Below are positions 21,407 through 42,459 of a DNA stretch of 64,000 nt, in pieces. The stretch is from contig CDLV01000004.1 of NCBI GenBank assembly GCA_001244265.2, positions 248,001 through 312,000 on the forward strand, written 5' to 3'. The position numbers were made by a program, and so were the translations under genes. Position 1 is the first letter of the stretch; every line of letters begins with the position of its first letter. The notes under the pieces are model-generated. The model was not told the DNA's origin and made no database searches. It worked only from the letters and a program-made list of their open reading frames with translations. The stretch is from Microbotryum violaceum. Lineage: Eukaryota.

Positions 21407-24400
21407 TGTAAGGCCCGTGCGCCTGGGCCTTAGGAAGAGGGGACGCGCGCCTGGGCACTCTTAGTCTCTCTCCAGCGACTGATACGAGTGTCCAGGTGAG
21501 CACAAGGTGGATCAGAAGGCATTGTCATACCAGCGACTGATACGAGTGTCCAGTGTCAATTCTACATACTTTGGTCCTGTGATCCTTGTCGTCGTTGCTC
21601 AGGTGTACACTCCAACGGGGTGTATTACACTTTTTTTTTCACACCGGTCAAAGACGCACACTGCCACGTGCGCCAGCGACACACCCACGGAACGAACAAA
21701 CGACAACGAACGGTAACAGACGAACATGGCGCGTGGCAAGAACTCCAAGAACTCCACCGCCCAACCAGCGCCACCATCGGCACCAGAGGAAAGGGAGGAC
21801 AGCTCGGACGATGAACAGGAGGTTGCAACGATGCCAAGGGGCATGAAGCTCAGCGCGCCCAAGCTTGCGAACGGCACGAAACTCACTCTCTCCTCGATCC
21901 GCGCATTCCTCAACGACATGGACAACATGTTCTTCCAGTACCAAGTGAAGAACATGCGACTAAAGATAATGTTCATCGCCAACCACATTGAACACGAGGC
22001 GCTCAAGGATTGGCTGGTGACGGCGACGGAGGAACGCACGTGGGACGAGCTTAAGGTCGCCTTCATCCGCAAGGCACTACCCTTGGATTTCGCCTTCACG
22101 ACAGAGCAGCGTATTCGCCACAGCCACCAAGGCAACCACGACTATGCGACGTGGGCTTCGGGACTTCGGGCCTCACAGCTGCAGCTCGGCCAGACCGCCC
22201 TCAGCGACATCGAGTTCATCAAGATCCTACTGTTCAACATGGACCCTCAATTGAGCGTTGTTCTACGACAGAACGACCTTCTGTTGGGTACTGGCCTACA
22301 CCAAGATGATTTAGACTACGTGGCGGCTTCAAAGGCGGCGCTCCCCAAGCTCAAGACATTATCTTACGAGGTGTTCGAGCGATTGGCAAGATCCCAATGG
22401 AATGTGATCATAGCGGTTCGTCCTGTAGCAACTCCCCGAACGCAAACCTCGACTACGAGCCCAAAGACCAGCTCTGGCCGACCTTTCGTGACCTCGGCGA
22501 CCACTCGACGCAGGCCGACGAGACTCACGGACCCGATGAAGGGTTATCTCTCGGAGAAGGAGGGATGCTTTAGCTGTAGACGCATCAACACGGATCACCG
22601 CGCGAGCGACTGTACAGCCAACTGGCAGCAGGCACCGGATGTCCCGGAGGGGTGGGCCGAATTCGAAAAGAAGACGGCGAAAGCGGCTAAGAACGACACC
22701 CTCCATCAAATTGCGGAAAACTCAGAAGACGACATCTCAACGGACGAAGAAAACGAGTACGCCCCTCAGTTCATCTCCACCATTCCCATCACTCTGCACA
22801 ACAACACGAAGTCAAAGACGTTGCAGGCACTTGCTGACTCTGGGGCCTCTTCCTCCTTTATCGCAGATAAGGTGGTTGAGAAACTGGGGTTAGTCATGCA
22901 TCGTCTCCCTGTTCCTACATTGGTCAAAACTGCAATCAAGGGCCAAGCACGCGCGTTTCATGTTACCTCGTTTGTAAAGATTCCGATCACGCTCGAGAAT
23001 GGCGCATGGGAAGCGGGACACACGATTCTGAAGGTGGCTAAACTGCAGGAGCCCTTGGAAGTGGTACTGGGGTTCAACTTCCTTGTAAAACACAAGGTTA
23101 CCATCGACTTCGCGGCACACAAGATCCTAGTGCCACATCCGACCATGCCTGACGTAAAGATCGACCTTCTTGCGCCGGTCTTCGGACCCCACCCCCAGCG
23201 AGCCGCGGCGAGGAATGCCAAACGAAGCGATAAAGCTCGGATCAACTGGCGTGCAGTGATTGCCTACATCGACGGGGTCCAGCAAAGGGAAACGGAGTTG
23301 ACGGAGTTGCGACGGCGGGAGGCAAAGCTACGGGTCGAGTTCGCGGATCGGTTCCCGGGGATATTCCTCCGGTTTCGACGTATGAATCACCGGTCCGACA
23401 CCGAATCGAGCTGAAGGACGGAGCAACAAAACCGAACTTGAAGGGTTATCGAGCGGCACACCGTTACCGGGAAGCCTGGAAGCGCCTGATTGATCAGCAC
23501 GTTGCCAATGGCCGCCTTCGAAAGTCGTCATCAGAGTTTGCGTCCCCGGCGTTTGTCATCCCAAAGAAAGGTATGGATAAGGACCCGTCAATCCAACCAC
23601 GCATGGTCTGTGACTACCGAGTACTCAACGAAGGGACGGTCCGAGATCGCACACCTCTACCACTTCCGGACGAGATTCTGTCGGTCTGCTCAAACGCGCG
23701 ATTCTGGGGGAAGATCGACATGACAAACTCCTTCTTCCAAACCAAGATGGCCGAGGAAGACATCCGGAAGACGGCGATTGTGACACCGTGGGGATTGTAC
23801 GAGTGGACGGTAATGCCAATGGGACTCTGCAACGCCCCGGCAACGCATCAGCGCCGAGTCAACGAGGCACTCGGAGACCTTATCGGGAGCGTGTGTTTCG
23901 TGTACCTCGATGACATCACAATCTTTGCCGACACCTTGGAGGAACATGAACGACGGGTGCGACTAGTCCTGGAGGCGCTGAGACGGGCGGATCTGTACGT
24001 ATCGCCGAAGAAGACGGAACTGTTTGCTGCCGAGTGCTTTTTCCTCGGCCACCAGATCACTCGGGAAGGCATCAAGGTCGATCCTGACAAGGTGGAGCGG
24101 ATCCAACAGTGGCCGCGACCAAGGACGGTGAAGCAATTGCAGGGATTCCTAGGTCTGGTGCAGTATCTGCGGAAGTTCATCGACAAGCTTGCGGATTTGA
24201 CGGCGGTTTTAGTCCCGCTGACACGGAAAGGGGTGCATGTCGACGAAGGCTGGACGGGAGAGCACGACAAGGCGTTTGAGGCAATCAAGTCCTTGGTGGG
24301 CAACCTTCCTTCTCTACATCCCATTGACCATTCCGACAAGGGCGACCCATTATGGCTGATGACAGACGCGAGCAATCGGGGAATCGGGGCGGCACTCAGT

Positions 24401-40300: not shown

Positions 40301-42459
40301 CGCGAGGTGTTCATCCAGTAAGCGTCGCCACGCCGCACGCCAGCGCATCGGAGTGCCGTAGGTTGGTTGCCGCGGAGTCTTCATACCAGGTTTCAGCGCG
40401 ATACGATGGCGGACCTTTGACTTGTACTGTGAGACCGGCGGGATGTCTGCCGGAAATCGGTCCGAGAAGTCCTTGCGAAATGCGACTTCAAGTGCTCGCA
40501 ATTGCGACTCTTCCGCTTGATGCTCTTCGAGATGAGCGAAACAGGCCCGAATGCTCGCCTGAACCGCACTCTCCGACCATTCCCCCTTCTCCCCCGGTGC
40601 ATCAGATCGATACGCTTGCCGGGTAGGGTTGGATCGGGGGCCAGCACTCGACGCCTTTTGCAGTCGACCAGGATATCGTGTCGCTTTAAGAACGGTCGCC
40701 CCAACACCACTTTCAACGACGTCAATGGCGCAATCTTCAGAACGACGTGCTGGGTAGACCATCGGCCGTTCAGGGTACGAAGTGGCACACACACGAATTC
40801 AGTGACGGGATGCGAGACCCTGTGACTTTGGATTGCAACACTAACAGATGTGGGTACCTGAAGCTTCCTCCGTGTCAACCGTAGTTTCTCCACTTCCCTA
40901 TCTGCGATGAAGGAAGCGGAAGCACCCGTGTCAACTAGAGCTTGCAAGGCAGGTCCATCCTCTCTTGTGAGCTTCACAGAAAGGGAAATGGGTTCGCACC
41001 TCTCGTCATCCGTGCCGTTGTCGTATTCGTCATCGCACATGCAGTGTAGCTCTTCACCCATGTCGTCAATTTCGTCTACGGCGTCGGATAAGGACGCAAC
41101 TTGTTCTGGGGATACGGGACCTTGTCGCCAACCCGCTGGGACTTTACAAGCCGAAGTCGCCCAGGTAGTGCACGTGTCCTTGAAGTGGCCAGCATTGATC
41201 TTGCGACATTTGAAGCAGCCCTGATTGCTCCTGAGGAAAGCACGCTCACGGTCGGTCATCGGCGGCGCTCGGGTTTTGGAAGACAACGGCGGCAGCGTAG
41301 ACGGCGAGGCGGTAGTGCGCAGCGTAGGCGTGGAGCGGACGGTTCTCGCTGAGGCTTGAGCTGTCGCCTTCACGGAGGCGCGGGTGGCACTGATGACTTG
41401 CCAGAGTCGCCTAGGTTCTGCGTCGAACATCTGGTAATCGAAGACTGCGGAGCTGGTGGTCGAGTCGGCTTTGACTATGGAGGCGTCGAGTTCGTCGGGC
41501 AACAATCCCGTCCCCTTGATCACCTCCGAGAGTCGGAGTCGCTGAGAGAGCTCCTCGTCCATGTGGAGCAGGAGCATGCGGATCAGTTGGGTGTCGCTGA
41601 CAAGACTGACGCCCAGTTCCAGTTGCAGATCGCGAGCGGCCGTTGAAAATTCTCGGTAATCACCCGTCTGTCGCAAGTTGTCGAGGCGTCGATAGTGTTG
41701 CCACATGTAATCGGACGGCAACGCGCGAAGTGTCAAATCGCGTTGGAATACACCGTACTTCTTGTTGACATGTGACGCGGCACCACTGGAATACCACACC
41801 TTCAGCTCTGGGTCGAGGAGCAGCTGGCCAATCATATCGATCTTGTCAACATCTGTCTCGATCTTCTCTTTTTGAAGTATCGATCGTTGCGAGACCAGAA
41901 GAGTCAAAGTCCCGATAAGGTGCGGTCGGTGCGGCAAAGGTAAGACGGGGCGTGCAATTTCCAGCAAGGGGGTGCGTCCTCGTGCGGTTCGCTCATCCTG
42001 CGCGCGGCAGGACGGCGGCGGTCGTCGTCTGAGTCGGAGTCGGTCACGGTAACGGCGGAGGCGGGGTCGGAGGCTCCCGAGTGGATGCTCTCCGAGTCGC
42101 TTAACGGCAGAGGTATGAGCAGTGGATCGGGTATGGCGAAGGCTCTAGCCAACCTGGCAGCGGCGCGAGTGACAGCGGGAATGCTGACGTGTCTTGATCG
42201 TTGTCAAAAAAAAAATTGGAAGCACCGCGTGCAGCGGTGCTCCAGAACGATAGACAGGATCAAACAATAGTAATTCACTAGAACCTTGGGTCAGTGAGCT
42301 AGCATACTACACATATGAGAAAAGGGGCACCCACCTAGAACCTCGGGTCAGTGAGCTGGCGAAAGCCAAGGGAGGTTCTAGGCGCGCGCAAGCTATTCAA
42401 CTAAGCCAAAAGTTCTATCGCCTTCCATCGTACCTCGGGCAAAGGCCTCAGGCCTTGCA
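37325..42459 (-). mobile_element. Gypsy-C: full-length chromodomain Ty3/Gypsy, frameshifted
   Basis: 243-bp LTRs 42217-42459 and 37325-37567, TSD CCTTC, T10 after the 5' [37 protein letters not shown], integrase, EEWVVREI chromodomain. Confidence 0.95.

Follow-up and report, generated by a model that had tools for sequence, protein, structure and literature searches.

The window analysed here, a stretch of 64,000 nucleotides (nt) of Microbotryum violaceum DNA (contig CDLV01000004.1, positions 248,001 to 312,000), contains three Ty3/Gypsy retrotransposons with a chromodomain, Gypsy-A, Gypsy-B and Gypsy-C. In each of them a run of T's occupies the canonical position of the primer-binding site (PBS), just past the 5' long terminal repeat (LTR), and is followed by bases complementary to a short segment of the element's own LTR. 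We propose, with a probability of roughly 40%, that reverse transcription in this clade may start from the polyadenylated 3' end of the element's own RNA, requiring neither a tRNA nor the 5' end of the transcript, and that the poly(A) tail would thus form part of a sequence-specific primer composed of the last bases of R (repeat) and the first A's.

The T-run begins one base past the 5' LTR in all three elements (Table 1), and the positions and LTR boundaries that an earlier note on this DNA had given for the two runs of nine and the one of ten hold. Runs of nine or more T's occur at four places in the window (six overlapping matches against 0.62 expected; none of 100 shuffles reached six). 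Three of these places are the junctions of Gypsy-A, Gypsy-B and Gypsy-C, and the fourth, 48160-48169, has no LTR adjoining it. Gypsy-B, Gypsy-C and both parts of the interrupted Gypsy-A contain no A or T homopolymer of at least 6 nt other than the junction run, and the LTRs of the three elements hold no A-run; judging from the sequence, the only A-run available in the element RNA would be its poly(A) tail. The run of nine is unchanged in the four listed contigs, from two other sequencing runs, that cross the tract, and among the 12 indels listed, out of 17, for contigs from other runs none falls at 21630-21640.

Neither of the familiar primer arrangements was recovered at these junctions, as the earlier note had stated and as we confirm. 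The TGG by which a tRNA-primed element is recognised is absent after the 5' LTR of Gypsy-A, Gypsy-B and Gypsy-C, no tRNA genes were found within the window, and we know of no tRNA that could pair with nine T's. Self-priming of the Tf1 type is recognised by a perfect LTR complement of at least 10 nt beginning 0-5 nt past the LTR (PMC6317226, in the part of that paper used here). No such complement was found in the three elements: the longest exact LTR complement in the first 45 nt of the leader is 6 nt in each, and none abuts the LTR.

The elements belong to a chromovirus clade that is common in Microbotryomycetes. All eight Gag matches are Microbotryum proteins, as are the best relatives of Pol; among the Pol matches listed (120, from 851 proteins at E<=1e-80 among 8000 scored), relatives about 50% identical come from Sporobolomyces, Rhodotorula, Rhodosporidiobolus and Phenoliferia. 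Searches of environmental sequences for further 5' junctions gave mixed returns. Two protein alignments against viral contigs found no relatives, a DNA pattern derived from the relatives L007 and L008 matched 120 viral contigs of which none encodes a Pol relative, and a metagenome scan with Gag-protease found nothing. A metagenome scan with Pol gave six loci, among which the 5' junction is reached only in L002; another, L001, ends inside its own 3' LTR and its junction is not covered. Among prokaryote genome records, a soil metagenome-assembled genome (MAG) proved to include binned eukaryotic contigs; this MAG gave 24 Pol matches, and four of these elements (L007, L008, L153 and L157) reach the 5' junction. 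Pol of L007 and L008 is 41-42% identical to that of Gypsy-A, and the reverse transcriptase-RNase H (RT-RH) region of L153 and L157 is about 30% identical.

With these relatives included, the T-run begins 0-1 nt past the LTR in seven junctions from six lineages, with T8 in L007 and L008 and T5 in L153 and L157. An RT-RH tree was built from 17 local rows, Gypsy-C being dropped for its short match. In it, all elements with a T-run junction fall together with L001 on one side (93/93), and Gypsy-D, L002 and the remainder fall on the opposite side. Every 5' junction recovered from the side of Gypsy-A and Gypsy-B carries the run, which thus extends well past the three copies of the earlier note. The T8 and T5 junctions in relatives show that the T-run is old and conserved.

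The records that yielded the relatives show features of their own. The Bacteroidetes-labelled MAG G001, the source of L007, holds at least 24 fungal-type Gypsy Pol matches on more than 15 contigs (C42, C84, C108, C158, C330, C493 and C564 among those with Gypsy Pol), which marks it as contaminated by repeats of eukaryotic origin. Four distant Gypsy contigs (L009-L012) occur in a Sedimenticola MAG as well. In L153 two successive elements use a single LTR at 539-745, the first as its 3' LTR, preceded by the polypurine tract AGAAGGGGAGAA, and the next as its 5' LTR; this shared LTR is followed by the T5 site and gag, forming a tandem pair.

The bases that follow the run are the second part of the evidence. 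When Gypsy-A, Gypsy-B and Gypsy-C are folded with RNAalifold, a conserved block of the LTR pairs with the bases just past the T-run, and a hairpin at the end of U5 (unique 5' region) lies between the two; the equivalent hairpin of Gypsy-C carries compensatory changes. In Gypsy-A and Gypsy-B the pairing is CUUUGGUC-C-UGUGA with UCACA-CC-GGUCAAAG, in Gypsy-C UGUUUGAUC-C-UGUC with GACA-AC-GAUCA(A)GACA, and in L008 UCCUUGGUC-C-UACUGA with UCAGUA-AC-GAUUAA(A)GGA. L007 pairs GUC-CAAUUG with CAAUUG-C-GAC, as seen by duplex folding only, MAFFT having given no register for it. In all six lineages the T-run is followed by 4-6 leader bases that match, as an exact reverse complement, a k-mer of the LTR (TGTG, TGTC, TACTG, CAATTG, AGTTGT and AGTCGT), each of which occurs once per LTR, 12-48 nt from the LTR end. 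The summed lengths of T-run and k-mer are 13, 14, 13, 14, 11 and 11, longer k-mers accompanying shorter runs, and the base that follows the k-mer is an A in four of the six lineages. This first helix is purely Watson-Crick in all lineages, and the second, beyond it, contains G-U pairs and a 1x2 loop. The primer site would thus be a unit of 11-14 nt, comprising T5-10 and the next 4-6 bases and starting 0-1 nt past the 5' LTR. The earlier note had taken the T-run for the whole site, a view that is not supported in that form, as the abutting bases pair and covary with a segment of the element's own LTR. Pairing between the transcript and the primer-site region was also an outcome that the earlier note had set against its own reading, and the pairing of this LTR segment with the bases past the T-run touches on it.

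Covariation was scored in an alignment of Gypsy-A, Gypsy-B, Gypsy-C and L008, in which 96% of 50 cells pair; sliding the partner lowers this to 28-46%. Both sides are altered in four pairs, and three of 500 shuffles match the paired percentage. A G-C to C-G swap in Gypsy-C went uncounted owing to an alignment gap and is visible in the Gypsy-C duplex. A covariance model built from Gypsy-A, Gypsy-B and Gypsy-C, run over 120 kb, found the site of L008 (E = 3.9e-4) and did not find L007. The duplex of each element's own LTR 16-mer, extended by A's, with the site has a predicted energy of -14.4 to -19.5 kcal/mol, compared with -10.0 to -12.8 kcal/mol for the LTR block alone and -0.3 to -4.9 kcal/mol for A25 alone. 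The last of these values disfavours the earlier idea that any cellular poly(A) might serve as the primer. The evidence for complementarity is positional and comparative, not thermodynamic.

Because no base separates helix 1 from the T-run, a strand that complements the entire site reads as the LTR k-mer followed by oligo(A), and the second, imperfect helix extends the match. The 3' end of this strand would face the first T, beside the LTR, which is the polarity of a minus-strand primer. We therefore propose a pathway whose poly(A) site, tail cut and priming step we infer, next to the anatomy, conservation, covariation and duplex energies that were observed. The element RNA would be cleaved and polyadenylated directly after the k-mer, which would close R and leave the remaining 12-48 nt as U5; in Gypsy-B, R would end with the block at 21569-21582, and the poly(A) site would follow directly. 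In the 3' LTRs, poly(A) addition would accordingly fall after 26413/26414 (+) in Gypsy-B, after 14705/14704 (-) in Gypsy-A and after 37361 (-) in Gypsy-C. An RNA ending in R and poly(A), either the 3' end of the genomic RNA itself or a short transcript that ends in the 5' LTR, would anneal to the site. The unpaired remainder of the tail would then be cut at the end of the duplex, facing the non-T spacer base, much as RNase H acts at the Tf1 self-primer, and the freed 3'-OH would prime minus-strand strong-stop DNA. In effect, the 5' self-priming of the Tf1/sushi group would be mirrored at the 3' end.

This model would tie together several features of the site. The T-run would stand at the canonical place, consist purely of T's and be abutted by the helix because the RNA is polyadenylated right after the k-mer, and the A past the k-mer in four of six lineages would have the same cause. 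It would also account for summed lengths that equal that of a normal primer site. Helix 1 would be strictly Watson-Crick and helix 2 tolerant because only the last bases of the primer are copied anew in each cycle, and run length would be kept stable by an anchored register and by trimming of the tail at the duplex end, opposite the non-T spacer. A further, weak hint comes from an A/T-rich patch (AATT/AAAT) that seven of seven LTRs carry about 12-27 nt ahead of the predicted cut, where fungal positioning elements are expected; poly(A) sites of Cryptococcus have an A-rich peak near -20 (PMC3990503, as far as the part cited goes).

Several observations weigh against self-priming by the tailed 3' end. 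Gypsy-C and L007 lack the A past the k-mer and have T or C there. The model requires a fairly exact poly(A) site, yet those of fungi tend to be heterogeneous. The duplex energy of the LTR block is unremarkable against shuffled probes in Gypsy-A, Gypsy-B and Gypsy-C (P = 0.28-0.56; 0.02 for Gypsy-D), and a complement of four bases is weak alone, so that the case consists of position, uniqueness and covariation in few lineages. The copy of the block in the 5' LTR lies only 12-48 nt from the site, where a local hairpin can compete. Among the relatives, four lineages derive from one contaminated MAG, the placement of L153 and L157, whose branch is long (2.14), is unsure, and the LTR ends of L007, L008 and L157 were assigned by likeness, without a second LTR. 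The contigs of sequencing runs X3, X16, X17 and X18 are DNA-like, with LTR-flank junctions, and gave no usable transcript starts or ends. Finally, we found no precedent for self-priming from a 3' end.

The alternative that survives best, although we consider it unlikely, is that the U-tract is a protein-binding or structural signal (for nucleocapsid or packaging, as a La/Lsm-type binding site, as a flexible linker or as an RT pause site) and that the true primer is something else that was not recognised. An exposed U-run beside stable stems would make a plausible protein site, the duplex energy tests alone are not significant, and an atypical Gag knuckle co-occurs with the long tracts of Gypsy-A, Gypsy-B, Gypsy-C and L007. 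That knuckle, CX2CX6HX4C, had been described in the earlier note as a shared trait, and it stands as such in Gypsy-B, Gypsy-C, L007 and the consensus of ten clade proteins; it is not, however, tied to the tract, the long spacer accompanying the T8-10 lineages only. The T5 lineages L153 and L157 carry the classical CX2CX4HX4C form, which speaks against a protein signal and is also that of Gypsy-D and L002; the gag copy of L008 has no knuckle that we could see. Furthermore, a protein or structural signal would leave no primer site where one is required, and would not account for exact complementarity from the first base past the run.

Tf1/sushi-type 5' self-priming with a displaced site appears less probable still. 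Here the transcript would begin with the LTR block, which would fold onto the bases past the T-run, RNase H would cut after helix 1, and the T-run would merely be the first template, a spacer. The duplex between block and leader and its covariation would serve this arrangement equally well, the U5-end hairpin resembles the Tf1 'pretzel' (PMC10085805, in part), and self-priming is common among Tf1-related chromoviruses according to the part of PMC6317226 cited above. The window itself holds a canonical example in Gypsy-D, whose site shares GATCAAGA with Gypsy-C. However, such a displaced site gives no role to a conserved pure T-run, and its exact match of 6 nt in Gypsy-A, Gypsy-B and Gypsy-C falls short of the perfect 10 nt expected and of the 11 in Gypsy-D. 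Copying in each cycle should keep the match perfect, yet the 1x2 loop and the G-U pairs persist; and the 12-16 nt between block and LTR end in L007, L153 and L157 are too little for R and U5 together once the primer has been removed.

A primer site consisting of nothing but the oligo-U tract, open to any poly(A), with the block-leader helix as a stem holding the tract out in a loop, would fit a pure tract at the canonical position, closed in its loop by a conserved helix, in elements with no other A-run, but we regard it as improbable given the slight pairing energy of A25 (essentially nothing in the T5 lineages), the constancy of T9 in Gypsy-A, Gypsy-B and the four crossing contigs where unanchored copying of a tail should make run length drift, and its silence both on the gapless contact of helix and run in all lineages and on the trade-off between run and k-mer length. 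The proposal likens that stem to the one between U5 and leader in retroviruses. In retroviruses, the U5-leader stem encloses a U5-terminal hairpin and the PBS, and the site pairs with the 3' end of a tRNA. Unlike this retroviral loop, the stem of Gypsy-A, Gypsy-B and Gypsy-C abuts the tract and continues its complementarity.

Other candidates were tried and set aside. Pairing of the U-run with an LTR purine run through G-U pairs exists in Gypsy-A and Gypsy-B only, not in Gypsy-C; pairing of the last bases of the LTR end plus tail with the leader is not conserved in Gypsy-C; and a small RNA of the Pol III type that would terminate at the T-run was unsupported by tRNA and Rfam searches, the latter giving nothing at gathering level and a chance mir-87 match (E 9.5) near the LTR. 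A depth step in run X16 near 21559-21563 was dropped as a transcript start, contig depth being unable to show starts. No polyadenylated retrocopy of the LTR block was found in the window.

To our knowledge, the characterised LTR retroelements all prime with a whole or half tRNA or, in the Tf1/sushi group, with the first bases of their own transcript. The comparisons that follow draw on portions of the papers cited. Tf1 and Tf2 of Schizosaccharomyces pombe are self-primed through the 'pretzel' structure (PMC10085805, PMC7175516). The model proposed here for the Microbotryum elements would have in common with them the absence of a tRNA primer, a site complementary to the element's own R, a chromodomain integrase, a U5-end hairpin with extra duplexes flanking the site, and a primer freed at the end of an RNA:RNA duplex. 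Unlike in Tf1, the complement in Gypsy-A, Gypsy-B and Gypsy-C is not the transcript's first 11 nt in a perfect, LTR-adjacent duplex; the site opens with T5-10, which can pair only with A's that the LTR does not encode; and the k-mer, at a distance of 12-48 nt from the LTR end, resembles the 3' end of R and not its 5' end.

The closest descriptions in print concern chromoviruses in which no PBS had been found. In the Skipper elements of dictyostelids the PBS is replaced by a degenerate polypyrimidine tract with a C toward the LTR; the portion of that report cited here describes no Tf1-type or other LTR complement, doubts a simple poly(A) partner, proposes an unknown kind of self-priming, and states that its authors knew of no other organisms with the feature (PMC5006619). 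Skipper and the elements described here are both chromodomain Gypsy elements with no TGG and with a pyrimidine tract right past the left LTR, its C facing the LTR; tract and C spacer occur in Gypsy-A, Gypsy-B, L007, L008 and L153, the likeness to Skipper being one of description only. The two differ in that the tract is here pure T and not degenerate polypyrimidine, in that an exact LTR complement abuts it here, and in their hosts, those of Skipper being amoebae. SM-Tcn1 of Selaginella has neither a tRNA nor a self-primer site, and the leader between its LTR and gag is called 'conservative and thymine-rich' and its mechanism 'unclear' in the part of PMC2864245 cited; it thus resembles our elements, again by description and not by sequence, as a chromovirus with a T-rich leader and no recognised PBS. 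The Tcn1 clade includes basidiomycete elements, one of them from Sporobolomyces, a member of Microbotryomycetes (PMC2864245, PMC6317226), although for most plant Tcn1 elements ordinary self-priming was predicted by Neumann et al. 2019 (PMC6317226). Goodwin & Poulter 2001 are said, in part of a review (PMC7175516), to have proposed novel priming for Tcn2-5 of Cryptococcus. In full-text searches of the literature we found no oligo-T primer site and no poly(A)-primed LTR element, and something similar may be in print for Tcn2-5.

We consequently regard the T-run site as a fungal variant of a known but unexplained missing-PBS type, for which the proposed mechanism would be new if confirmed. The same logic may account for the T-rich or polypyrimidine 'missing PBS' of Skipper and of Tcn1-like chromoviruses. 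Published accounts give no PBS and no clear mechanism for Skipper, SM-Tcn1 and, reportedly, Tcn2-5, and the anatomy described here turns that question into a concrete prediction: the model places the poly(A) site at one particular nucleotide and specifies a single junction of RNA with DNA. If it is correct, these elements would represent a third class of minus-strand primer, 3'-end processing would be tied to replication competence, and annotation pipelines would gain a rule for elements reported without a primer site. If it is false, the conserved tract with its helix remains a defined RNA element of an abundant fungal clade.

Table 1. Positions in the window, strand and key features of the retrotransposons and their primer-site regions, with the 5' junctions of environmental relatives (TSD, target-site duplication).
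Feature	Position	Strand	Details
Gypsy-B	21407-26461	+	complete but broken copy; TSD CTTGT at 21402-21406 and 26462-26466
Gypsy-B 5' LTR	21407-21629	+	223 nt; TG..CA; ends ..ATTACA
Gypsy-B LTR block	21569-21582	+	CTTTGGTC-C-TGTG-A; 5' strands of helix 2 and helix 1
Gypsy-B U5-end hairpin	21605-21625	+	9-bp stem, AAC loop
Gypsy-B junction	21630-21639	+	spacer C 21630, T9 21631-21639; one base after 5' LTR
Gypsy-B primer-site region	21630-21653	+	C, T9, CACA (helix 1), CC (loop), GGTCAAAG (helix 2)
Gypsy-B 3' LTR	26297-26461	+	without the 58-nt internal duplication of the 5' LTR
Gypsy-A	14656-29624	-	TSD CCGAG at 14651-14655 and 29625-29629
Gypsy-A 3' LTR	14656-14879	-	
Gypsy-A 5' LTR	29460-29624	-	last base toward leader 29460
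Gypsy-A LTR block	29508-29521	-	CTTTGGTC-C-TGTG-A
Gypsy-A junction	29459-29450	-	spacer C 29459, T9 29458-29450; one base after 5' LTR
Gypsy-A primer-site region	29436-29459	-	C, T9, CACA 29449-29446, TC, GGTCAAAG 29443-29436
Gypsy-C	37325-42459	-	TSD GAAGG at 37320-37324 and 42460-42464
Gypsy-C LTRs	37325-37567 and 42217-42459	-	5' LTR ends ..CTTCCA at 42217
Gypsy-C LTR block	42253-42266	-	TGTTTGATC-C-TGTC
Gypsy-C junction	42216-42206	-	spacer A 42216, T10 42215-42206; one base after 5' LTR
Gypsy-C primer-site region	42190-42216	-	A, T10, GACA (helix 1), AC (loop), GATCA-A-GACA (helix 2)
Gypsy-D	42501-47885	+	different chromovirus, internal control
Gypsy-D PBS	42638-42648	+	AGATCAAGATT; 2 nt past LTR; 11/11 complement of LTR AATCTTGATCT
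Gypsy-D 3' LTR copy of AATCTTGATCT	47732-47742		
Copia element	19277-29211	-	LTRs 19277-19413 and 29074-29211; sits in Gypsy-A, hosts Gypsy-B
Copia primer site	28995-28984		tRNA type, TGGTAGCG..
L008 junction			..GTTCCA C T8 CAGTA..; soil MAG
L007 junction			..GTTCCA C T8 CAATTG..; soil MAG
L153 junction			..CTTACA C T5 ACAACT..; soil MAG
L157 junction			..CCCACA T5 ACGACT..; soil MAG

By self-BLAST and open reading frames (ORFs), the region is a nest of LTR retrotransposons. Gypsy-A, Gypsy-B and Gypsy-C all have the TG..CA LTR ends and 5-bp TSD of Ty3/Gypsy elements, and the Pfam domains RVP_2, RVT_1, RT_RNaseH, Integrase_H2C2, rve, SH3_Tf2-1 and Chromo follow the order of a chromovirus (the chromodomain of Gypsy-B scores 52.4 bits). 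Gypsy-C represents a divergent lineage, its Pol being 52% identical to that of Gypsy-A. The earlier reading of gag and protease as one frame stands in Gypsy-B, where a single ORF (21726-23414) holds RVP_2 at amino acids 363-469. In other respects that account needed correction: Gypsy-A is split by a Copia element that itself holds Gypsy-B, and each of the three Gypsy copies is broken by frameshifts or stops, in Gypsy-B by a frameshift near 23400 and a stop at 24548-24550. With LTR pairs that are 96-100% alike, they are dead but young copies.

The nesting has three levels, the Copia element splitting Gypsy-A in gag and Gypsy-B splitting the Copia element between integrase and RT; a Copia element without the Gypsy-B insertion is present in contigs from other sequencing runs. 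A 58-nt segment (21472-21529 in Gypsy-B), bounded by a 23-nt direct repeat CAGCGACTGATACGAGTGTCCAG, is found in the 5' LTR of Gypsy-B and the 3' LTR of Gypsy-A and is missing from each partner LTR. One contig of run X17 has the identical 58-nt skip, and in Gypsy-C both copies of the 23-nt repeat are present in both LTRs.

From the sites of Gypsy-A, Gypsy-B and Gypsy-C, of Gypsy-D and of the Copia element, it follows that one genome holds three arrangements: the T-run, the Tf1 type and the tRNA type. The site of Gypsy-D is laid out as a canonical Tf1-type self-primer, and L002 among the relatives has a tRNA site, TGGTGCC.., 2 nt after the LTR. Minor features of these elements were also recorded. 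The 5' LTR of Gypsy-D is truncated at 42501, where it adjoins the Gypsy-C insertion, and its predicted transcript start is preceded, at a distance of about 45 nt, by a TACAAATAG box. The final 24-27 nt of the Copia 5' LTR (ACGGTTGGATTACACGCTCGTCAG) occur again 44 nt downstream (28984-29073). In L002 the tRNA-complementary site is unusually long (TGGTGCCTTGTCCAGGATTTGAACC, 2 nt after ..GTAACA, at about 955-990), and a 126-nt terminal direct repeat (1-126 and 8546-8671) inside an ORF of 2561 amino acids suggests a circular or tandem assembly.

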